From: Candidatus Woesearchaeota archaeon
GTDB taxonomy: Archaea; Nanobdellota; Nanobdellia; Woesearchaeales; DSVV01
Assembly: GCA_016219865.1 (NCBI GenBank)
Contig: JACRKF010000021.1
Coordinates: 2,224-66,223 of the forward strand
Direction: 5' to 3'
DNA: 64,000 nucleotides
Shown here: piece by piece, positions 24,283 to 58,433 of the stretch
How positions within the stretch are numbered: the stretch's first letter is position 1
Layout: each line of letters begins with the position of its first letter
Notes under the pieces: model-generated
Told to the model about the DNA's origin: nothing
Database searches by the model: none
The model's input: the letters and a program-made list of their open reading frames with translations, nothing else
Program-made: the position numbers and the translations under genes

Positions 24283-24456
24283 TTATAAGATATTATTATC
24301 AACCAATTGCTGTTTTTTTATTTCCCTTCTATATTTTGCGTATTTATCCTCAGGAGAATATTTTGCTGGCTTCATATCAATTGCTTTTTTGCCGCAATTG
24401 CATAATTGCTTTATAGTATATGTTTTGCAGATAGGACATCGTAGTATATGTTTCAT
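24283..24456 (-). CDS. nop10: H/ACA RNP subunit Nop10 (57 aa; absent from the ORF track)
   Basis: Hand translation gives MKHILRCPICKTYTIKQLCNCGKKAIDMKPAKYSPEDKYAKYRREIKK. A CPxC...CxCG zinc ribbon plus SPEDKY..KYR matches Nop10. It directly follows aIF2alpha, as in most archaea. Confidence 0.85.
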   Translation of the reverse strand: MKHILRCPICKTYTIKQLCNCGKKAIDMKPAKYSPEDKYAKYRREIKKQQLVDNNIL

Positions 24457-24468
24457 GATAAAACCTTT

Positions 24469-25254
24469 TTATTTTGTTTCAGCGCGGATAAATTCATATT
24501 GAGAATTGATATTCTTTGTGGATTTTTTGACAATTTCGAGCATTTCTTTGATGATTGCTTCAGCTTTTTTATAGTCATCTTGTTTAACAATTATTTTGTA
24601 TATTCCAGCGCCAGCATATTTTATATCCACTGCTTTTTTCCCATATTCAGTCAATTTTTGGAATAGATGTGTGATGATCTCTAGACCATTGCTTTCATAA
24701 GTCTTAAAATGAAGATCTCCCTTGATTGTAACTTCAGGTTGCTTGATTCTTTGCTTAACTGTTTCAACAAGAATCTTTTCATATTCTTTTGGTATGTTTA
24801 ATTCTTTTACATCAACAATTTCAGCAACAATTTGCTCAAAGAATTTATGCAGATAACTATATTTTTTAAAAATAGGTGTTGCAATATGTTCATAAACTTG
24901 CCTTACATCGCGTTTTGTTGTATGCGCAACAACTTCTATAATTTTCTCTGCAATCTGCTCTAATTTCATCTCGTTTATCTTTGTTTTTCGCTGCATATCA
25001 GTTACTCTGCGCAATGATAAATCAATATGACCGCGTTCTTGATCAATTCTAAGAACCATGCAAACGACAACTTTGCCTTCTTTAATGTATTCATTGATAT
25101 TCCTAATTCTGCCAGCTGCAACTTCGCTAATATGAATCATTCCTTTAAGATCATATTCATCTATTGTTGCAAATACAGAATGATATTGAATCTTTGTAAT
25201 AGTGCACATCACTATTTCATATTCTTGAGGTAAATCTTTCTTTCTATAGAACAT
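24469..25254 (-). CDS. eif2a: translation initiation factor aIF2 alpha subunit
   Basis: An S1 domain (EYEIVMCTI...GMIHISEV) and a central helical domain are present. The ORF-track start is TTG; ATG at 25254. Confidence 0.9.
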   Translation of the reverse strand: MFYRKKDLPQEYEIVMCTITKIQYHSVFATIDEYDLKGMIHISEVAAGRIRNINEYIKEGKVVVCMVLRIDQERGHIDLSLRRVTDMQRKTKINEMKLEQIAEKIIEVVAHTTKRDVRQVYEHIATPIFKKYSYLHKFFEQIVAEIVDVKELNIPKEYEKILVETVKQRIKQPEVTIKGDLHFKTYESNGLEIITHLFQKLTEYGKKAVDIKYAGAGIYKIIVKQDDYKKAEAIIKEMLEIVKKSTKNINSQYEFIRAETK

Positions 25255-25267
25255 TATTTTTACTCCT

Positions 25268-25453
25268 TTATTCAAGCACTTCTAATACTCGTGCTTTTAT
25301 CTTTGATTTTCCGCCTGTTGGTTCTACTAAAACCTTTTCACATACTAAGCATTTCACCATTGTTGCGCTTTTTCCAAATGTAATCTGCTCATTTTTACAT
25401 TTAGGACATCGTATTTTTACAAATTTACTGTTTGGTTCACGTACTAATAACAT
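25268..25453 (-). CDS. rps27e: 30S ribosomal protein S27e
   Basis: CPKCKNEQ...CLVCEKVL is the C4 zinc finger of S27e. 61 aa. Confidence 0.85.
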   Translation of the reverse strand: MLLVREPNSKFVKIRCPKCKNEQITFGKSATMVKCLVCEKVLVEPTGGKSKIKARVLEVLE

Positions 25454-25577: not shown

Positions 25578-27515
25578 CTAGCGTATCCTGCTTTTAGCAG
25601 CCTGAAACACATGCTCAGGGAGAACACTTTGAACTGAGATGATACCATAATGCAGACCAATTGCTTCTGCTGGCGCTTCTTGCTTTGTATAACTAAATCC
25701 ATTGCCATTAGAACTCAAAGGAAATAAAGAAACTTGTACTGATGAATTTACCCCTAAGTCTCTAAGATTAGGAAAATGTGTTGGAAGAATTGCGCGAACA
25801 CCTTTATTGAGAAAAGTGTTTTCTGCAATTGCATATAAGATTGCTGCGCCGTCATCTGCTCTTGTTGCAGTTCCCTATTCATCTAATACCACAAGACAAT
25901 ACGATTCACAACCTGTAATCTGCTCATACAGCTCTTTGATTGCTTGTTTTTCAGCAGCAAAACTGCTTTTAATATTTGTTCCTACTTGCCTATGCCTTAC
26001 AAATATTCTTTCATGGATTGAGATTGTAGCAGAACTTGCTGGGACATATAATCCAGCCTGCGCAAAATTCACAAGTATTGCAGCCATATCAGCATAGATT
26101 GACTTTCCTGCTTCATTTGGACCTTCAACTATCTCAACAAGAGTATCGTGATTAAGATAGACGCTATTTGGCATTGGTTTGGAAACATGAAGGAAAGGAT
26201 TTAGGCCATTTTCAATATTGATTATCCTTTCTTCTTTTGGAACAATTGTAGACCTTACCCTTTTTTTTTCTTTAAAAAATTTTGCTAATCCTGCATACAA
26301 AGCAATCTCTTTTTCAATTTTTTTAAAAGAAGTTGTAATATATCTAAATTTCTCGAGGGAATTACGTTCCCCAAATAGATGATATAACTCTTTAGCATCT
26401 TTTGGATCTGCTGCTATAATCTCTTGCAACTTCTTTTTTAATGAAGAAATTCCTTTCTCTTCATTCTTCATTATATGATCCACAGCTCTCTGTATACGAC
26501 CAAGTTGCGGAACATCAGCATCAGTAAGATCTGGAAATGAGATGCTTTCCAGATTTTGAACAACATTTTTTACATTTTTCATAAATTGTTCATAACAAAA
26601 TTGAGCAACATCTTTAGCTTCTTCTGGATCAAAGAGATAGGTTCCACCATCTCTTGATTGGATATTACCCATCCTATGACCATGTTTAGAATGTTTATTC
26701 ATAAATCCTATCCCTGCTTTTCCTTTATAGCACTGAAATAGATCCATGACAGACCAAAGAAGAGCTTTCATAGTAGAATCGAGAGAGATGCAATCATTTT
26801 TTGTCAAAGATTTTAAAAGATCGTCATTAACCATAAAATAATTGATTGCGTCAGTTCGTTGAGCAATAAGATTTCTGTCAGTCAATGGATTAAGCACCCA
26901 ATCAGCAAGTTGAGGTTTGTCTAGATCATATCCTGAAAATAATGCATTAAGCAATCGTGGAGTTGGTTTTTCCATAGTAAAGAAATAACCAAATGTCTTT
27001 TCTGTATCACCACCATAAAGCGCATTATAACTTTCATGATCAAGAACTGCACTATGTAAAAAACTAAGCGAATCATCTTTAGGTAAACTCCCTTTTACTA
27101 ATTGAGGATGCTTTGTATATGATAGATCAATCTCATCAACAAGAACAACAATATTGCCATATTTAACAGAATCCATATTAATTTTAGGCGCAATCACTAT
27201 ATCTGCAGATTCAAGACGAGCTTTGTATCTTTTTGGATCAAGAGAAAACTTTTCAAGAGGAATACTGGACATCCTCATTTTTGTTTGAACAAGAGCCTTG
27301 TAAAGAGAAAGTGCTTCCTTTATATGAACAGGGATATGATCATCACGACGTGAATCATACTTTCCATAATTAAGAGAATCGAGATCATGTTTCCCATTAA
27401 CTTTTGAAGCAATAGTCCCTACAAAAACTGCGCTTAGATTATGATGCAATTCACTCCTTAACTCAAGAATTTTAGCTCCAGTTTCTAATGTTTGTATTTC
27501 CTCTTCAAGCGTCAT
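25578..27515 (-). pseudogene. MutS-family ATPase (domain V) interrupted by an in-frame TAG at 25875-25877; read-through would give about 645 aa
   Basis: Walker A GPNEAGKS. The sequence reads ...SYCLVVLDE-[TAG]-GTATRADDGAAILYAIAE...THF, which matches MutS LLDE-I-GRGTSTyDG...TH. No MutS domain I (GDFYELF) is present. Confidence 0.7.
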
Positions 27516-28447: not shown

Positions 28448-29137
28448 TTATTTCTTCGCAACATACACAGCCATATTATTAAACTGCCAAACTAAATTAA
28501 TTTCTTTAAATCCAACAGTTTTAAGAAGCTTGAACTGTTCACTTAATCTCATAGGTTTATCATCAATAAATGCATGTTTTAGCCAAACTTGCAGTTCATT
28601 GCCTGAAAGATTATTTTCAAGATAATTTTTATAAATTTGTTTATATTCTTCATTTATCTGTTGATCTTCTGCTTCAATAAAATCACCATTCACAAAAACT
28701 CCATTATTTTTTAACCCAGTATATATTTTCTCAAATATCAACTTTTTCTGCTCATGTGATGAATTGTGGATTGCCACAGCAGAAACAATAACATCAAATT
28801 GTTTGTCAAAAACCATTGTATTGAAATCATCTTTTCGTAGATCAATTCTATCAATATATGCCATTAAGTTTTTCCGAGCATTTTGTATCATTTTATGAGA
28901 AAAATCAACTCCAGTTATTTTTGCTAATGGAAATTTCTTGAATAGTAAAAGCATTCCATGTGCTGTACCAGAACCAAGATCTAATATATCCAGATTACTA
29001 TGAGAATGATACTGCAAAGAATCAACAATTACTTCATGCAATTCATCATTCTTCATTACAACACAATCTGCAATAATATCATAATCATCAATCGTTTTTG
29101 AAAAATGGATATTGATTGGATTGTTTTGGTCTTCCAT
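28448..29137 (-). CDS. class I SAM-dependent methyltransferase
   Basis: Motif I ILDLGSGTAHG. Confidence 0.75.
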   Translation of the reverse strand: MEDQNNPINIHFSKTIDDYDIIADCVVMKNDELHEVIVDSLQYHSHSNLDILDLGSGTAHGMLLLFKKFPLAKITGVDFSHKMIQNARKNLMAYIDRIDLRKDDFNTMVFDKQFDVIVSAVAIHNSSHEQKKLIFEKIYTGLKNNGVFVNGDFIEAEDQQINEEYKQIYKNYLENNLSGNELQVWLKHAFIDDKPMRLSEQFKLLKTVGFKEINLVWQFNNMAVYVAKK

Positions 29138-29222: not shown

Positions 29223-29262
29223 GGAGAATTTTGCAAGAATTGTTATTCTTGTAAAATTCTCC
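29223..29262. repeat. palindromic repeat, family A, copy (ggagaattttgcaagaat-tgtt-attcttgtaaaattctcc)
   Basis: 18-bp arms with one mismatch. It abuts the mutL stop codon. Confidence 0.7.
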
Positions 29263-30960
29263 TTACTCTTTCCTCTTAAACTTCTTCTCAAGTTCATACA
29301 ATGAATAATGTATTATTGCTGGACGTCCATGCGGGCAAGTGAATTTATTTTCGCATTGAAACAATTCTTCCAGAATTCTATAGATCTCTGGAAATTCTAA
29401 TACATCATGCGCTTTTACTGCGCTTCTGCAAGCTGCTCGTGCTATTCTCTCCTCCTTAATTTCCTCAATTTTCACCGTTTCGCCAAGATTTAATTCATCA
29501 ATAACATCATAGATTAATTGTTTCTGTTGTGTTCTTCCAAAAACAGAAGGTAATGAGCGAAGCAGATAACTATCATTACCAAATAACTCAAGATTAAACC
29601 CAGTGCTTTGCAGCAATTCAATATTCTGCTCTATAATAACGCGTTCATTTGGTGTTACATGCAACACAATTGGTGTTAATAATTGCTGCGCATGTATATG
29701 CTTATCTTTGCATTCTTGCAAGAATTTCTCATACATAACTCTTTCATGCGCTGCATGCTGATCAATCAGAAGCATTCCTTTTTCATCTTCTGCAATGATA
29801 AATGTATTATGTATCTTTCCAATTAATCGTATATTCAACACTTGTTTTAAAGGTAATAAAGACGGCGCTTGCGTGAATGCAGTTTGATATTCAATAAACT
29901 GCCCTGCTGAGGACAATATAAGTTTTGCATCAATCTCTTTTGGTCTTGATTCAATCACTTCCGGAATCAAATTTTCTTCAACTAAGCAATCGATAACTGC
30001 TTTCTTTATTGCTTCATAGATTAAATATTCTTTATCAACTCTGACAATTGATTTTGAAGGATGCACATTAACATCAACTTTCTGCGGCAGAATAGTTATA
30101 TTTAAAATAAAGATCGGATGCCTTCCATGAAACAAGAAAGTGCCATAACCATCATAAACAGCTTTGTTAAGAACATAATTTTTAATATACCTTTTATTAA
30201 TGTACAAGCTTTGATATTCTTTATCTGTCCTTGCTGCATTTGGCTTGCCGATATAACCATTAATCTCAACATCGCCATTTGCAAAGTTAACAGCCAGAAA
30301 CTCTTTTGTTAAATCTCTGCCATATATTGTTATAATATTATTCAGCAGATCTGTTGTAGACGGTGAATTAATAATTGTCTTCCCATTATGCGTCAACAGA
30401 AAATGCATCTCTGGATGGATTAATGCATAACGAGTAATGATATCAATAATATGATTAAATTCCACTGCAATTCCTTTCAGATGTTTTTTTCGCGCAGGAA
30501 CATTGTAAAAAAGATCAGAAACAGCAATCATTGTGCCTTGTTTTGCGCTGACATATTCCTGCTTTAAAACAATGCCATTTTCAACTGTTATTGAAACACC
30601 AACATCATTTTCTTTTGTTTTTGTTATCATTTCAAGCTTAGCAATTGAAGCAATACTTGCTAATGCTTCTCCTCGAAATCCAAGAGTTGTAATCTGAAAC
30701 AAATCCTGAAGATTATTTAATTTTGATGTAGTATGGCGCTGTATACTCATCACAACATCATCTTTCTCAATACCTGATCCATTGTCACTCACTTTAACAA
30801 GAGATTTCCCGCCTTCAATAACTTCAATGGAAATATGTGTTGCTTCTGCATCAATTGCATTCTCAACCAATTCTTTTACAACAGAAGCAGGTCTTTCAAT
30901 AACTTCTCCAGCTGCAATCTTATTTATTAAATCTTTATCAAGTTCTTTTATTTTACTCAT
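29263..30960 (-). CDS. mutL: DNA mismatch repair protein MutL (with endonuclease motif)
   Basis: GHKL motifs ELVENAIDA, DNGSGI and GFRGEAL are present. The C-terminal DQHAAHERVMYEKF is the DQHAxxExxxxE nicking motif. Confidence 0.9.
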   Translation of the reverse strand: MSKIKELDKDLINKIAAGEVIERPASVVKELVENAIDAEATHISIEVIEGGKSLVKVSDNGSGIEKDDVVMSIQRHTTSKLNNLQDLFQITTLGFRGEALASIASIAKLEMITKTKENDVGVSITVENGIVLKQEYVSAKQGTMIAVSDLFYNVPARKKHLKGIAVEFNHIIDIITRYALIHPEMHFLLTHNGKTIINSPSTTDLLNNIITIYGRDLTKEFLAVNFANGDVEINGYIGKPNAARTDKEYQSLYINKRYIKNYVLNKAVYDGYGTFLFHGRHPIFILNITILPQKVDVNVHPSKSIVRVDKEYLIYEAIKKAVIDCLVEENLIPEVIESRPKEIDAKLILSSAGQFIEYQTAFTQAPSLLPLKQVLNIRLIGKIHNTFIIAEDEKGMLLIDQHAAHERVMYEKFLQECKDKHIHAQQLLTPIVLHVTPNERVIIEQNIELLQSTGFNLELFGNDSYLLRSLPSVFGRTQQKQLIYDVIDELNLGETVKIEEIKEERIARAACRSAVKAHDVLEFPEIYRILEELFQCENKFTCPHGRPAIIHYSLYELEKKFKRKE

Positions 30961-30990
30961 AATAAAAAGGAGAACGAAGAATGATTTAAA

Positions 30991-32379
30991 TTAATTGTGA
31001 TTTAATACCTGATTCAGATTATGGTTGCCTTTATCACTAATACCATATCTTTCTCTAACAATTCTTTCTTCTCTATCAGTTAAGCGAGATAATAGTTGTT
31101 TTAATCTAAAACTATCATCTTTTACAAGAGCAGAATCATCAGCTGAAACTGATGCTGTATTCTCAAGCACATCATAATAAGTCATTTCTTTTCCTGTACC
31201 AACGGCATCATCAAGTGAAGTAAGTGTTAATCGTTTTTTGTATTCATCATATGTTTTTTCATCAAGATACTTCCTTTTGCCTGTTATTTCCATCTCATAC
31301 TCTAAATCTTCAAAAGTTCTATGCTTTCTTTCTATCTCTCTATAAGTTGCTGCAAATTTCTCTTGCGCATGCACAGGAGTGCGTATAGTCTTATTCTGAT
31401 CTATAATTGCGCGAGTTACTGCTTGCTTTATCCACCATGTTGCATATGTTGAAAATTTATATCCTCTCTGCCCATCAAATTTTTCTACTGATTTCATTAA
31501 TCCAGTATTTCCTTCTTGAATTAAATCAGAAAGAGTCATATTGTCCAATAAATGAGTGTATTTCTTCGCAATTGAAACAACAAGACGAAGATTTGCATTA
31601 ACAAATTTATTGCGAAGTGAGAAATATTCTCTAAGATCTCTGCCTATGGAAATAAGATCCTCCTTGTAAGCATTATGTATTCTAAATGCTCTTGCATTCC
31701 CAGCTAAAGAATCACCTAATTTATTTTCATAAAACTCCATATAATGACAAGCTGCTGCCTTAAACAAAGAATATGAATTAAAATAAAATGAAGGATCAAC
31801 ACCAAAATCAATGATCTCTTTAAGAAATTCTTTTCCATACTCTACTTTTCTAGCAACAGATGGAATTATTCTGCCATATTTCAACCTTTTTTCACCCAAT
31901 ACCGGGATAATTTCTAAATAAAAGCTTTCAACTGCTTTACGCATTTGATCATATACATTACCATCTTTTTCTACCTCGCCTTTATCAGTTACTTGTTCTT
32001 CATCTTCATTACTTTCTTGAATATAACCCTGTTGTTCAGCATCGCCATTATCAACTTTCTGTTTAGAAATTGCATAAGCAACTCTTTTCTCTAAACGAAA
32101 AACTTTTAACAATGGTTGAAGAACATATTCTGGATTTATACCATAAACTTTTCCGATAAAAGAACTTCTCACTTCACGAAGTCTTTGGGAAAGATTAATT
32201 TCTTCATCTCTTGTTAGTAATTTAATTGCGCCCATACTTTTCATATAAGTAGAACAAGAATCTGAATCAATAAGTTCAGAACCATTAGGCCGAGAATCAC
32301 CTGGAATATAAATACCCTCTGCATAATCATCTAATCCTAATGCATGAATTCTATTCTCCAACCCCACAATCTCTTCCAT
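30991..32379 (-). CDS. bacterial-type sigma-70 family protein (regions 1.2, 2, 3, 4.1), apparently lacking the region 4.2 recognition helix
   Basis: Region 2 [11 protein letters not shown]...[41 protein letters not shown] is nearly identical to the RpoD consensus. Region 1.2 ([16 protein letters not shown]) and region 4.1 ([15 protein letters not shown]) are present. The ORF ends right after NLNQV. Confidence 0.8.
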
Positions 32380-32414
32380 TATATCCCCAAATATAAAGGA
32401 GATTAGATGAGTAT

Positions 32415-33509
32415 TTAATGATTATTATTTTTAACACGTTCAAATTCCTTTAGATAATGCTTTGCAATCTCAGCATCATGAATAATAATTATATTTTCAT
32501 CATTATTTTCATCGCCATTTTTTGTGGGATTATAACTGCCTGTAATTACAACACTTTCATCTACAATGAAAACTTTATGATGCAGTTTGTATTTATTATT
32601 ATCAAAAATAACTGAGATATTTGCATCTTTTAATTTCTGATACTCAGTAAACTGGTTATTTTGTGATTTATCAAAAACACCTTCAATAACAATGCCTTGC
32701 TTTGATTTCTGAAGTAATAAATTCCCAATATTATCAGACGTAAAAGAAAAGACCATAAAATAAATGCTTTCATTTGCTTTTTCAAGAGTTTCAATAACTT
32801 TTTGTTCACATTTATCCTCAGGACAGAAATGATTATCAATTTCAATTAATGTGATATTTAATATTGTATTTAAGAAGTTACTTTGATTAAGCATAATGCG
32901 AGGATACTTCACTTTTTCTCCTTTCCCAAACTCCCCATTCCATAATTCTCTAAATTCATCATTATAATTCTCAGCAATCTTCAAAGAGTTTATAACAACT
33001 AGATTATTGTCATTTTTATAAATATCATTATCAGTTGGATTCATGCTTCCAGTAAATACTCTCAAATTATCAAACACGCAGAACTTATTATGCATCAACT
33101 GATTGCCATCATCAAACTTAAATACATTGCCTTGAAGGTTTTCTTTATTATCATTATCAACTACAACTCTTACAAAAACATTCTGTTGCGCTTTCTGCTG
33201 CAAAGCTTGCAGAATATCTTGATTGTCAAGATCGTACAATGCGCAGCTAATCGACGCATTTGCTGAGTTTATTAGCTCAACAACTTTCTCAAGACAATTT
33301 TGTGTTTGACAGAAATAAACATCAATTGAACCATTATCAAAGACAGGAATTATTTGTTTTTGTGCTTCTTTTATAGAATCCTCAGTTATTGCATCAGTGC
33401 TTCCATCGTGTATAAATATTGTTTTAAAAAGTGTGATTATTGCTGCTGTTAGAAATATCAAAACGATAAATATAATAAAAAAACGCAGCCAGAATGATGC
33501 CGTCTTCAT
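32415..33509 (-). CDS. phospholipase D-family protein with two HKD motifs and an N-terminal TM helix
   Basis: The two HKD motifs are HNKFCVFD...GSMN and HHKVFIVD...GSYN. A transmembrane helix spans residues about 8-28. Confidence 0.75.
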
Positions 33510-33901
33510 TTTTTAAACTTCCTGATTAGCAAGTGCAAATCCAGAATTATCTGCTTTGCTTCACTTTCACTTGCTTTTTTGCCGTAATAATTGATTCCAT
33601 TTCTTATCTTACGCAATTTGTCAAACAAATCAGCTTCATAAGATAAATGAAGAACTTCCTTTAGAAATGATGTATAACATTCATGATTGTAAATTTTATA
33701 GCCTTTTTCCAATGCAAGAGCTTCTAAACTTTCTCTTAATGCATCATACAAGAGAGTAATCTTTCCAATATAATATTTATCAGCTAATGCTTCAGCCGAT
33801 TGTATCTTCATCTCAGCAATTTCCCTTGTTGAAAGTATTAGATTTTTATCTTCTTTAACATCTTTGACTATTCTTTTATTAATACATTCTTTCCAATCCA
33901 T
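33506..33901 (-). CDS. HEPN-domain protein (partner of the upstream MNT)
   Basis: R-x4-N/H-type HEPN motif (LRKIRNGINYYG). The ORF-track start at 33916 is GTG; ATG at 33901. Confidence 0.6.
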   Translation of the reverse strand: MDWKECINKRIVKDVKEDKNLILSTREIAEMKIQSAEALADKYYIGKITLLYDALRESLEALALEKGYKIYNHECYTSFLKEVLHLSYEADLFDKLRKIRNGINYYGKKASESEAKQIILDLHLLIRKFKK

Positions 33902-33902
33902 T

Positions 33903-34415
33903 TTACCAACTTCCACTTAAAGTATATCCATTAAGTATATTATGGAGAAGTTCTTTGTTTGTTACATTCTCCATCCTATGAAATTGCATTACTTGTATTT
34001 CTCTTTTTAGAATTTTTTCATATTTTTTTAGATCTAGTTTCTTATCAGTTGGTGTAAAAACAGCAATATCTATATCTGAATCTGATCTTGCCTCTGCTTT
34101 TGATAACGAACCAAAAAGTATAATGACTGGATTTAGCAGTTCATTTTCGAAATAATCAAGCATTCCTGATTTTTCAAGAATAGATCTCCAATAGAGCCTT
34201 GATAAATCAATAAAGAACTGAGAGTCTTTATTTGCATAATAATATATATACAATTTATCTACTTCCTTTTTTAAGATTTTCTCGATAAAGAAAGTATCAA
34301 GAAGTTTAGATGCTGTTGGTGGACTTATCTTTTGCATTCTTGCATATTCTCTGACATTGATTCTCCTATAATTATCTTCCATAAACGATTTCAATCTGTT
34401 AATTATTTCTAACAT
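33903..34415 (-). CDS. minimal nucleotidyltransferase (MNT) with an N-terminal wHTH
   Basis: GSLSKAEARSDSDIDIAVF matches the GS-x9-DxD nucleotidyltransferase motif. Confidence 0.75.
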   Translation of the reverse strand: MLEIINRLKSFMEDNYRRINVREYARMQKISPPTASKLLDTFFIEKILKKEVDKLYIYYYANKDSQFFIDLSRLYWRSILEKSGMLDYFENELLNPVIILFGSLSKAEARSDSDIDIAVFTPTDKKLDLKKYEKILKREIQVMQFHRMENVTNKELLHNILNGYTLSGSW

Positions 34416-34729: not shown

Positions 34730-36508
34730 CTATATCTCCTTCACCATATACGCACCTTCTAGATGATACCCTAACTTCTTATAATATCCTCGCGTGCCAA
34801 CTGCAGAGATTACGACAATCTTATTTTTTCTATTCTGCCGCGCAATCTCCTCAGCTTTCTGCATCAGTTTTTTGCCAATGCCCTTATGCTGCACAACAGA
34901 TTCTTCGACAGCAGTATCGCCGATTGCCTCTGCTTCTCCATAGACATGCAATTCTCTGATTAATGCAGACGTTTTTGTAATCTCTTTCCTCAAAAATTGT
35001 GAAGGAAACCTTAACCGAACAAACCCCAACAGAATATCCTGCTTTTTGTCCTCATAAGAAATAAAAAACTCTTTGCCATTGCTTGCTTCATATTCTTCAA
35101 CAAGAATCTCTGGATTTCTTGGCAATAATCCCTTTTTATTATACACATGTCCAACTTCTCTGCAGCGAATACAATGACAAACAGGATTTAACTCATCAAC
35201 ATATTGCCGTAAATTTGTTCTATCAACGCCGCCATCTATCATTTTTGTAGGAATATCTCGCTGCACTCGCATGATTCTGCAATATCTTGCAACAAATGGT
35301 TTAAACTCAGCAATCAATTGCGCAGCATCTTTTGTAGTCAAAGGAACAAATCTACCCTCTTGCCATAGTTTATACAACTCAGTGCCTTTAAACACCATGC
35401 ATGGATAAATTTTCAACATGTCTGGCTTATAATCAGAATTGTTAAAGAGCTGTTTCATTCCAGCAAGATCCATCTTTTTTGTTGTTTCAGGCAATCCAGG
35501 CATATAATGAAAGTTTAATTTAAACCCAAGATCTTTTAAGATTCTAACTGCTTCAATATTATCTGCAACAGTATTTCCTCGTTTAATATATTTTAAAACA
35601 TTATCATAAACACTCTGCACGCCAATCTCTACTCGCGTGCAACCAAGCTCTAGCATAAAATTAGCTTCATCGAGCTTTGCGCAATCACTTCTTGTTTCTA
35701 ATGTTATGCCAACACATTTGATAAAAGAAGTTTGATTTCTCTCCTTTTCTTTCGCAAGTGTTGTCTCACCCTTAAGTTTCAAAAGTTTTTCCTGAATATT
35801 CTTTGTTCTCTGCTTGTCACCAACTGCTCCAGGCAATTCAAAAAACTTCCTAAACTTTACAACATCAAATCTTTTTTTTGCAAAAAAAAGATTTGAGAAA
35901 TCATTCATAGCTTTGAATGCATAGGTAATAAATTGCTCTTGATATTTTCTAGCAAAACTTGTAAATGTGCCGCCCATAACAATCAACTCAACTTTATCAA
36001 AATTATGACCAAGCACAACATATTGTTCTAACCTATTAAAAACTTGCAGATAACTGTCATAATTATTACGAATACCTCTCATAGTGCTTGGCTCATGTCC
36101 TGTATAAGATTTTGGCACAGTTCCAAATGGCGAATTAGGCCCGCCAGGACAATAGATGCATTGCGCTTGTGTCGGACAAGCATATGGCGCTGACATGATT
36201 GCTGCAACACTTACTCCTGAAATTGATCGCGTTGGTTTTGTCTGCAAATGTTTAAGATTAGGCAAATCTTTAGCAGGAGCTTCAAGCAATATCTGGATAT
36301 TAGTTGGAGGAGCTTTAATGCCATATTTTTTGCAGAGTTTGTTTTTTAAAGAATTAATCTTATCTTGATTGAGTGATTTCTGTTTAAGAGTTTTAAGCAG
36401 CTCTTTATAGAATGCAAACTTGTTTTGCTTGTTCTTCTTTAGTTGAACAAGAGTTATCTTTTCTACGTTGTTATTGCCATTATTATTATTGTTGATTTGC
36501 TGTAACAT
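34730..36508 (-). CDS. elp3: tRNA uridine(34) acetyltransferase Elp3 (radical SAM + GNAT)
   Basis: Radical-SAM motif CIYCPGG. The C-terminal GNAT carries GIGKKLM. The N-terminus has an Asn-rich extension. Confidence 0.85.
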   Translation of the reverse strand: MLQQINNNNNGNNNVEKITLVQLKKNKQNKFAFYKELLKTLKQKSLNQDKINSLKNKLCKKYGIKAPPTNIQILLEAPAKDLPNLKHLQTKPTRSISGVSVAAIMSAPYACPTQAQCIYCPGGPNSPFGTVPKSYTGHEPSTMRGIRNNYDSYLQVFNRLEQYVVLGHNFDKVELIVMGGTFTSFARKYQEQFITYAFKAMNDFSNLFFAKKRFDVVKFRKFFELPGAVGDKQRTKNIQEKLLKLKGETTLAKEKERNQTSFIKCVGITLETRSDCAKLDEANFMLELGCTRVEIGVQSVYDNVLKYIKRGNTVADNIEAVRILKDLGFKLNFHYMPGLPETTKKMDLAGMKQLFNNSDYKPDMLKIYPCMVFKGTELYKLWQEGRFVPLTTKDAAQLIAEFKPFVARYCRIMRVQRDIPTKMIDGGVDRTNLRQYVDELNPVCHCIRCREVGHVYNKKGLLPRNPEILVEEYEASNGKEFFISYEDKKQDILLGFVRLRFPSQFLRKEITKTSALIRELHVYGEAEAIGDTAVEESVVQHKGIGKKLMQKAEEIARQNRKNKIVVISAVGTRGYYKKLGYHLEGAYMVKEI

Positions 36509-36537: not shown

Positions 36538-37176
36538 ATGATAACCAAAAAAAGAAAGGTTTATATAGTTCCAACCCATAACTATAGTTATATGGAGAAT
36601 CCGCATAGTTTCAAAACAATACAGTTGTTATATAATGAAACCGCAGAAAAAAGAATATTAAGAAGACTTTTTCTTGATCCTAATAAAGAGTTTAGTTTAT
36701 CTGATCTTGCAACGCAGTCTTCTATGCGAAAAGAAAACATTGGAAAGATTTTAAAACATTTTGAAAAGAATGATTTGATCACAATAGCAAGACTGAAAAC
36801 AATTTGGCAGATACGTGCAAACCAGCAAAATAGCTTATTTATAAGAATGAAGATAGTCCATAATTTGCAGAACATTTACAATTCAGGTTTAGTTGACTTT
36901 CTGAATGAATATTACAACAATCCAAAAGCAATTGTCCTCTTTGGAAGTTATAGGAAAGGTGAAGATATTTCAACATCAGACATTGATATTGCAGTCGAGG
37001 ATGATTCAATTAAAGAATATAAGATACTTGAATTAAAAGAACTGAAAGAAATAGAAAAACATCTGCAAAGAAAAATACAGGTTCATTTATTCAATAGAGC
37101 AGATATAAACAAGAATGTATTCAGCAATATTGCCAATGGCATTGTGTTATTTGGTTTTTTAGAGGTTAATCTATGA
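36538..37176 (+). CDS. nucleotidyltransferase (MNT) with an N-terminal wHTH
   Basis: LFGSYRKGEDISTSDIDIAV. 4-bp overlap with the next gene. Confidence 0.7.
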   Translation: MITKKRKVYIVPTHNYSYMENPHSFKTIQLLYNETAEKRILRRLFLDPNKEFSLSDLATQSSMRKENIGKILKHFEKNDLITIARLKTIWQIRANQQNSLFIRMKIVHNLQNIYNSGLVDFLNEYYNNPKAIVLFGSYRKGEDISTSDIDIAVEDDSIKEYKILELKELKEIEKHLQRKIQVHLFNRADINKNVFSNIANGIVLFGFLEVNL

Positions 37177-57839: not shown

Positions 57840-58433
57840 ATGAAAACCAAAACATTTTTAAATTTGATTAGCTTTACCCTAACTAAAATGAAGAAAGCAG
57901 ATAATATCTTAGAAATATTCTTTAATTACCCTACAAAACAGTGGCATTTTGAAGATATAGTAAGAACAGCAGCAATTAGTAGGCCGCAAGCCACAGGATG
58001 GTTAAAAAAGTTCATCAAAGAAAAAATCATCATAAGAATAAAACAAAAAAGAAGAATGCCATATTACATTGCAAATTATCAAAATGCACAATATCAGATT
58101 AAAAAACGATTATATGCATTAGATAATTTTGAAAAAAGTGGCTTTTTAGAGCATCTTACAACACTCCCAAAAGCAAATAACATTATTCTTTTCGGTAGTT
58201 TTAGCAGATGGGATTGGAATGATGAAAGTGACATTGATATTTTTGTATATGGCAGTACAGAAGGCTTTGATATGAGTTATTACAGAAAAAGACTAGGAAG
58301 AGAGATTCAATTATTCATATGTAAAGATGAAGAACAATTGCAAAAATATAATTCTGCTCTCTTGAGGAATATCATAGAGGGTTATCTGATTAAAGGTGAT
58401 TTACAATTTATTGAGGTAAAACCACATGTATAA
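57840..58433 (+). CDS. nucleotidyltransferase (MNT) with an N-terminal wHTH
   Basis: LFGSFSRWDWNDESDIDIFV. Confidence 0.65.
   Translation: MKTKTFLNLISFTLTKMKKADNILEIFFNYPTKQWHFEDIVRTAAISRPQATGWLKKFIKEKIIIRIKQKRRMPYYIANYQNAQYQIKKRLYALDNFEKSGFLEHLTTLPKANNIILFGSFSRWDWNDESDIDIFVYGSTEGFDMSYYRKRLGREIQLFICKDEEQLQKYNSALLRNIIEGYLIKGDLQFIEVKPHV

Follow-up and report, generated by a model that had tools for sequence, protein, structure and literature searches.

We describe here a sigma-70 gene carried by a 64,000-nucleotide stretch (the window, to which all positions below refer unless otherwise stated) of contig JACRKF010000021.1 from a Candidatus Woesearchaeota archaeon. The gene is probably a lineage-specific, 3′-deleted allele of an RpoD-like sigma-70 of bacterial derivation which is a resident, syntenic gene in a subclade of the Woesearchaeota, and the copy in the window is likely to be crippled. 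The open reading frame (ORF) and its parts are listed below. Conservation of the sigma regions was scored as the number of bacterial-invariant columns retained in an alignment with 150 bacterial RpoDs; aa are amino acid positions and pLDDT is the predicted local distance difference test score of an AlphaFold2 model.

30991..32379, minus strand: sigma-70 family ORF, 3′-deleted allele, 462 aa (Pfam and NCBIfam matches)
32173..32253, minus strand: region 1.2, aa 43-69 (PF00140; 7/10 invariant columns; pLDDT 85-90)
31615..32172, minus strand: lineage-specific non-conserved region between regions 1.2 and 2, aa 70-255 (~185 aa; no bacterial conservation)
31387..31614, minus strand: region 2.1-2.4, aa 256-331, intact (PF04542; 45/56 invariant columns; pLDDT 78-91)
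31135..31386, minus strand: region 3, aa 332-415, with 3.0 kept, the 3.1 helix-turn-helix degenerate with a 7-aa gap and 3.2 partly kept (pLDDT 51-66)
31006..31134, minus strand: region 4.1 and the first helix of the 4.2 helix-turn-helix, aa 416-458, ending ..HNLNQV (7/9 invariant columns; alignment ends at E. coli residue 576)
30991..31005, minus strand: new C-terminus LNHN and TAA stop (DNA alignment with the sister genome)

An earlier reading of the sequence without database searches (the sequence-only reading) had proposed a bacterial-type sigma-70 homolog on an archaeal contig, and this is borne out by the profile searches. Among the Pfam profiles for regions 1.2, 2, 3 and 4, the first two match: Sigma70_r2 (PF04542) at aa 260-329, with 66.6 bits for a cutoff of 24 and an E-value of 1.7e-18, and Sigma70_r1_2 (PF00140) at aa 43-69, with 30.2 bits for a cutoff of 22 and an E-value of 4.4e-7. 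The protein also passes the NCBIfam sigma-70 superfamily model TIGR02937 (81.5 bits, cutoff 42.9). Its best matches among both hidden Markov models and PDB entries are RpoD/SigA, and all RpoD equivalog cutoffs are widely missed (NF004208, 205.9 versus 555; TIGR02393, 182.2 versus 354). Positions 394-594 of the 631 in the NCBIfam RpoD model NF004208 correspond to aa 256-458, and the alignment covers residues 376-576 of the 613 of E. coli sigma70 in PDB entries.

As had been claimed, region 2 lies close to the RpoD consensus. In sigma70, D403, Q406, E407, N409 and M413 bind the core enzyme, the set from Y425 to R441 is involved in melting and in recognition of the −10 element, H455 and E458 of region 3.0 read the extended −10 element, and R584, E585 and R588 read the −35 element. 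The equivalents of all five region 2.2 residues are present in the window protein (numbering offset 118), as are those of Y425, Y430, W433, W434, Q437, T440 and R441 in regions 2.3/2.4 and of H455 and E458 in region 3.0. The sequence-only reading had also judged regions 1.2, 3 and 4.1 to be recognisable. This holds for 1.2 and 4.1 and, within region 3, for 3.0 (6/8 invariant columns) and 3.2 (6/9); it fails for 3.1 (2/10), so that region 3 as a whole is only weakly recognisable. Indeed, neither the window protein nor any of the archaeal orthologs matches Sigma70_r3 (PF04539) at E <= 1. Region 1.1 (PF03979), present in the top bacterial matches of the ORF, is not matched either, and just 42 residues precede region 1.2. 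In the AlphaFold2 model, region 1.2, the sigma2 domain and two helices of region 4.1 (aa 413-431 and 435-445) are confident; sigma3 and the non-conserved region, which has a low pLDDT, are poor.

The most striking property of the ORF is its C-terminus. Sigma70_r4 (PF04545) gives no match even at E <= 1, none of the 14 bacterial-conserved columns of region 4.2 is retained, and the reading frame stops just before the −35 recognition helix, in agreement with the sequence-only reading. Compared with the bacterial RpoDs, the window protein lacks about 21 columns (GEDFDVTRERIRQIEAKALRK; the −35 recognition helix) and a tail of 12 columns, and the positions equivalent to R584, E585 and R588 fall past the stop. 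A distance of 30 nt separates the TAA stop from the ATG of a mutL gene at 30960, and no remnant of region 4.2 was found at the DNA level in any frame after the stop. Stop-codon recoding was considered as a cause of the truncation and rejected, since TAA, TGA and TAG are ordinary stops in the window and no region 4.2 sequence lies beyond the stop in any frame.

The origin of this truncation became clear from orthologs in two other Woesearchaeota lineages, reached through the neighbourhoods of the closest MutL relatives. The nearer is a sister genome, RIFCSPHIGHO2_02_FULL_32_12, from Rifle groundwater (L163; the same allele is L164 and L170, from ENA, NCBI and JGI assemblies, with zero mismatches among them), whose MutL and Elp3 are each 87% identical to those of the window. 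Its gene order is Elp3, a PLD-family protein, sigma (474 aa), MutL, lactamase_B, S27e, aIF2alpha, Nop10, PAC2 and L15e. The second, more distant lineage (L165/L166; MutL 70% identical) has PLD, sigma (470 aa), MutL, S27e, aIF2alpha and Nop10 in matching order, and its sigma carries Pfam r1_2, r2 and r4. The operon-like block with MutL and PLD described by the sequence-only reading is real and is conserved in both. The window and sister sigma proteins are 50.6% identical, with homology over the full length including the non-conserved region at aa 70-255.

Both orthologs are full length. They match Sigma70_r4 with 54 bits (L163) and 46 bits (L165) against a cutoff of 24.1, have the TRERIRQIE..ALRK −35 helix intact, and keep 11/14 and 10/14, respectively, of the region 4.2 columns. 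In a codon-anchored DNA alignment, the window from position 31002 downward corresponds to the sister genome from 5 nt past its sigma stop codon, with 53 of 62 positions identical and the match running on into mutL. The net loss in the window relative to the sister genome is 106 nt, and it includes the codons of the recognition helix and of the C-terminal tail as well as the original stop; Asn460-His461-Asn462 and the TAA of the window protein derive from the former sigma-mutL intergenic spacer, and the deletion junction lies at approximately 31002-31006. Since the syntenic orthologs keep region 4.2 near the bacterial consensus, its loss is not a trait of the archaeal gene family but a lineage-specific deletion. 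The absence of region 1.1 and of a detectable region 3 domain is of another kind: neither is matched by Pfam in any archaeal copy, and both features are therefore ancestral to the archaeal clade.

These orthologs were not apparent from protein searches. Apart from the query itself, nothing but generic bacterial RpoDs (identity of about 42-45% across regions 2-4) came back from a word-index search with the full protein, an exhaustive phmmer run on 1.84 billion cluster representatives or a search that omitted region 2. The view of a singleton lineage to which these searches led was overturned by the orthologs found through mutL synteny. The 474-aa ortholog is a called gene in the ENA, NCBI and JGI records, yet was not returned by the protein searches; in the phmmer set, at about 51% identity, it was probably hidden within the query's own 50% cluster. 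The top-scoring database matches (P0002, P0121-P0129) were set aside as assembly artefacts in which region 2 is duplicated and the scores are inflated. A viral origin of the sigma gene has no support, a scan of viral contigs having given only distant homologs with at most 39% identity. Anchoring on Elp3 revealed no sigma within 10 kb in 80 DPANN species, but gene order is poorly conserved on the downstream side of Elp3, and the closest contig (L003) breaks off within that gene. The search for MutL homologs defined a deep Woesearchaeota MutL family, and relatives at 52-56% identity have neighbourhoods without sigma; the PLD-sigma-MutL arrangement therefore marks a subclade. More distant Woesearchaeota (e.g. 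L169:11118-13728 and the context of P0283) carry a two-domain PLD protein and MutS a few kb from MutL, again with no sigma, which suggests a loosely conserved PLD/MutL/MutS neighbourhood in the phylum.

Evolutionary rates were estimated as pairwise nonsynonymous (dN) and synonymous (dS) divergence between the window and the sister genome, with nine neighbouring genes for comparison. Sigma, with a dN of 0.376 and a dN/dS of about 0.5, evolves 3-6 times faster than most neighbours (dN 0.016-0.143, dN/dS 0.03-0.13; MutL dN/dS 0.045). Within the gene, dN/dS is 0.18 for region 2, 0.29 for 3.1, 0.49 for the non-conserved region and near 1 for 1.2, 3.2 and 4.1, values which are approximate given a near-saturated dS (0.75-1.4), short segments and few codons. 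Constraint is concentrated in region 2 and, among the relatives, in region 4.2. In a relative-rate count with the more distant lineage or the bacterial consensus as outgroup, 24 changes are unique to the window and 21 or 20 to the sister (p = 0.77, 0.65): there is no detectable decay following the deletion, and sigma is fast-evolving in both lineages. In the absence of extra decay in the window copy, the deletion is probably recent. Even "intact" members of the family drift at canonical functional positions: in the sister protein (L163:8531-9955), N stands in place of Y425 (RGNRF) and Y in place of H455 (PVYIQE), while the window protein keeps both residues. Over regions 2-4.1, identity between the archaeal copies and bacterial RpoDs is about 43%, compared with 67% among the bacterial RpoDs themselves. 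A distance (neighbour-joining) tree on a subsample grouped the window and sister proteins in 50 of 50 bootstraps, and the overall pattern is that expected of long independent branches from an RpoD-like ancestor.

The sequence of events which we consider probable begins with an ancestor of this Woesearchaeota subclade acquiring an RpoD-like gene from bacteria. The gene would have settled between the PLD and mutL genes, next to S27e-aIF2alpha-Nop10, and in the family region 1.1 would then have disappeared, sigma3 would have degenerated and evolution would have been rapid since, with selection preserving region 2 and the −35 helix near the consensus of bacterial primary sigma factors. In the window lineage, a 106-nt deletion, probably recent, took out the last ~34 codons (those of the 4.2 helix and of the tail) as well as the stop, so that the reading frame now runs into what was spacer before and ends there. 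The truncated protein would be unable to recognise a −35-like element, its sigma4 domain would be incomplete and, at best, it might have kept binding mediated by sigma2 to a −10-like sequence. In the relatives, few parts of the protein are as well conserved as region 4.2, so that its loss most likely cripples the function of the family, and the window allele would most likely be a recent loss-of-function or strongly hypomorphic form, an incipient pseudogene. An interrupted mutS in the same window is consistent with ongoing gene degradation in a gene-shedding genome.

For the family as a whole, conservation of regions 2 and 4.2 makes a decaying relic unlikely and would imply selection for sigma-like recognition of DNA, and possibly of polymerase, in the archaeal host. 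The sequence-only reading had offered a decaying relic of horizontal gene transfer or a repurposed module as explanations. The first is plausible for the window allele and unlikely for the family; the second is possible and has no positive support. Our preferred guess is that the intact proteins act as stand-alone, promoter-like, sequence-specific DNA-binding regulators which need no bacterial core enzyme, a role favoured by the absence of the autoinhibitory region 1.1.

Several points weigh against this interpretation. Apart from the deletion, the ORF runs uninterrupted through 462 codons in a genome of 32% guanine-cytosine (GC) content, most universal sigma invariants are kept, including the 7/9 in region 4.1, and the upstream TCCTTTATATT element is conserved, so that a retained, altered function of the window protein is possible. 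E. coli sigma70 without region 4.2 is reportedly still active in vitro at extended −10 promoters (Kumar et al. 1993). The deletion is known from assembled sequence and may not be fixed in the population, and the dN/dS values are subject to the near-saturation of dS noted above. Lineages with the sigma gene other than that of the window number only two. Of these, L165 joins the window and sister proteins in only 17 of 50 bootstraps and lies slightly nearer the bacterial sequences, and its orthology rests mainly on synteny.

The strongest competing explanation, which we nevertheless consider unlikely, is that the window protein is a functional, repurposed sigma2 module. Such a protein would act through regions 1.2, 2 and 3.0 on −10-like or single-stranded DNA or on the clamp coiled-coil of RNA polymerase, the loss of region 4.2 being tolerated or adaptive. 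It would account for an intact reading frame with native codon usage, for the retention of all functional residues of regions 2 and 3.0, for the low dN/dS of region 2, for the confidently modelled sigma2 and for the conserved upstream element. The lineage of the window is moreover not accelerated relative to its sister, but a recent deletion would equally give no acceleration. The 4.2-less form occurs in one lineage only, and both other orthologs conserve region 4.2 better than most of the protein, so that the function of the family evidently needs it. A related case is engineered E. coli sigma70 lacking region 4.2, reportedly active only at extended −10 promoters: the window protein shares its domain content from 1.2 to 4.1, with the H455/E458 equivalents intact, while the engineered protein is a laboratory construct which works with bacterial core RNA polymerase. 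The window shows no enrichment of TGnTATAAT. Nor are sigma70-type promoter motifs in general (−35/−10 or extended −10) enriched there. A broader version, in which the woesearchaeal family works in the archaeal cell as a stand-alone regulator lacking region 1.1 and reading −35/−10-like motifs, or as a partner of the RNA polymerase clamp, with the window allele itself functional through region 2, would seem improbable to us. If it were true, this would be the first bacterial-type promoter-recognition hardware operating in archaeal transcription, and a natural domain-deletion series would be at hand to dissect sigma function in archaea.

We also compared the locus with Mza-type anti-virus defence systems, in which a sigma protein (MzaA) occurs with a MutL-like ATPase, Z1 and AIPR, and with other defence islands containing PLD nucleases. 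MzaA resembles the window protein in having an RpoD-like sigma domain beside a MutL-family gene, and the NCBIfam MzaA model (NF041931) is indeed its second-best match (198.9 bits, aa 39-458; PADLOC MzaA E-value 1.7e-33). The PLD protein is DrmC/NucT-like, a HEPN-MNT pair adjoins the locus and sigma evolves fast. The MzaA score nevertheless lies far below the family cutoff of 800 and reflects the generic RpoD-like part; the adjoining MutL is a canonical repair enzyme (547 bits with TIGR00585, endonuclease motif present, dN/dS as given above) with no PADLOC match; MzaB-E, Z1 and AIPR were not found among nine neighbouring proteins; and the HEPN-MNT pair is missing from the sister locus. Membership of the Mza system was rejected on the score, the missing MzaB-E and the canonical MutL and is essentially refuted, and membership of any other such defence system is likewise highly improbable.

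The contig is genuinely archaeal and contiguous. Archaeal markers lie on both sides of sigma (L15e, PAC2, Nop10, aIF2alpha, Elp3, TrmB, CDP-archaeol synthase (CarS), S15P/S13e, Trm1 and RtcB), among them the three neighbours named by the sequence-only reading, Elp3, aIF2alpha and Nop10, which domain matches place on the same sequence. The other genes are affiliated with DPANN archaea, to judge from these markers and from the woesearchaeal relatives of Elp3 and MutL; in GTDB genomes, the best 80 relatives of Elp3, which flanks the locus, all belong to Woesearchaeota or Nanoarchaeota (80/80). The GC content of the window is flat (0.28-0.36), that of sigma (0.324) is close to the gene mean (0.322), and its codon-usage distance (rank 48/59) and tetranucleotide profile are unremarkable, with no break in any of the three. 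An independent Logan assembly of run SRR12113407 contains an 8.6-kb contig with the gene order of the window and 100% identity over 1601 nt, including both junctions and the sigma stop codon. A bacterial fragment misjoined to archaeal sequence, for which one could cite the metagenomic origin of the genome and the typically bacterial nature of sigma, MutL, MutS and PLD, is thus practically excluded by the unbroken composition, the identical second assembly across both junctions, the recurrence of the order Elp3-PLD-sigma-MutL-...-S27e-aIF2alpha-Nop10 in independent samples and assemblies (ENA, NCBI, JGI) and the membership of MutL in a deep Woesearchaeota-specific family.

DPANN archaea transcribe with TBP, TFB and TFE, and no bacterial core RNA polymerase is known from these organisms. 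No RNA polymerase subunit genes lie within the 64-kb window. The sequence-only reading had stated that archaea are not expected to use sigma factors. This calls for correction: sigma-70 genes have been reported in DPANN archaea and described as "particularly prevalent in Woesearchaeota", with mis-binning ruled out, no anti-sigma factors found and the mechanism left open (Castelle et al. 2021, PMC8204110), and the NCBI entry for the window protein already bears the name [quoted passage not shown]. A more recent study found rpoS-like genes in viruses of DPANN archaea (2025; PMC12647753). The mere presence of sigma-70 in a woesearchaeote is therefore no novelty. The window gene is of the same kind and from the same phylum as sigma-70 family fam00359 (Castelle et al. 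2021, PMC8204110), of which it may be a member, and one of its syntenic orthologs comes from Rifle groundwater; domain anatomy, synteny and rates are absent from that account, and the window allele in addition lacks region 4.2.

The window protein shares with RpoD/SigA region 1.2, followed by a non-conserved stretch before region 2; regions 2.1-2.4 and 3.0 are near the consensus, 3.2 and 4.1 can be recognised, and its syntenic orthologs have the −35 helix as well. It differs in its archaeal host, the lack of region 1.1, the degenerate 3.1 and the deleted 4.2 helix. The reason for which bacterial sigma factors are retained by some DPANN archaea has barely been explored, and the locus adds concrete anatomy to this question. 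The pattern seen in the family, with a conserved PLD-sigma-MutL arrangement, no region 1.1, a degenerate sigma3, a fast rate and near-consensus regions 2 and 4.2, argues for something sequence-specific in the archaeon and provides clear constructs to test. The window copy gives no evidence for a new architecture: it is a truncated member of a reported, uncharacterised class, whose main use is as a naturally occurring deletion of region 4.2 and, beside the interrupted mutS, as an indication that genes in this genome are decaying.

The neighbouring genes and non-coding elements of the sigma locus are the following.

34730-36508: Elp3 (domain match)
32415..33509, minus strand: two-domain PLD-family protein, immediately upstream of sigma (PLDc_2, E-value 1.3e-42, two stretches)
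32380..32414, minus strand: PLD-sigma spacer, with TCCTTTATATT(T)GGGGATA just ahead of the sigma start codon
30961..30990, minus strand: conserved sigma-mutL spacer, with TTTAAATC about 30 nt ahead of the mutL ATG, shared by the window and the sister genome
29263..30960, minus strand: MutL, immediately downstream of sigma (TIGR00585, 547 bits, cutoff 180)
29223..29262, strand not assigned: perfect palindrome with an 18-bp stem (GGAGAATTTTGCAAGAAT..ATTCTTGTAAAATTCTCC), directly past the mutL stop
24469-25275: aIF2alpha (domain match)
24283-24456: Nop10 (Pfam, E-value 1.2e-16)

MutL includes HATPase_c_3, DNA_mis_repair and MutL_C domains and the endonuclease motif DQHAAHERVMYE (DQHA(X)2E(X)4E), features which identify it, on sequence grounds, as a canonical mismatch-repair endonuclease. 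The PLD-family protein has an N-terminal hydrophobic segment, is NucT- and DrmC-like and is syntenic in L163, L165 and L170. Ahead of sigma, the TCCTTTATATT(T)GGGGATA element (about 32383-32402 in the window; L163:8500-8530) is common to the window and the sister genome despite a dS of about 1 and looks like a TATA-like box followed by a G-rich ribosome-binding site. The sigma-mutL spacer is also highly conserved (30961-31002 compared with L163:9960-10000), and its TTTAAATC may be an archaeal TATA-like promoter element for a leaderless mutL transcript. The deletion in sigma ended just short of this element. The palindrome at 29223-29262 likely marks the end of the transcription unit and may serve as a terminator or be bound by a protein. 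Rfam and tRNA scans of the window gave no matches.

Compared with the sister genome (L163:7271-7328 and L163:11695-13144), the window contains three extra insertions around the sigma locus: a toxin-antitoxin-like pair of HEPN and nucleotidyltransferase (MNT) genes at 33506-34415, between Elp3 and PLD; an S-adenosylmethionine-dependent methyltransferase gene at 28448-29137, after mutL; and mutS at 25578-27515, between lactamase_B and S27e. This makes the region a hotspot for the gain and loss of genes. The mutS gene, on the minus strand, has an in-frame TAG at 25875-25877 within Walker B (LVVLDE*GTATR); positions 2-85 of the Pfam profile MutS_V match ahead of the TAG and positions 88-182 behind it in the same frame, and TAG is otherwise a normal stop in the window. 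The TAG is thus either a nonsense mutation, giving a pseudogene or split gene, or a sequencing variant; a look-up of the product in other assemblies found nothing on record. Two more MNT-type nucleotidyltransferase genes (PDC-M05A-like) lie at 36538-37176 and 57840-58433, so that this toxin-antitoxin-like family is present in several copies in the window.

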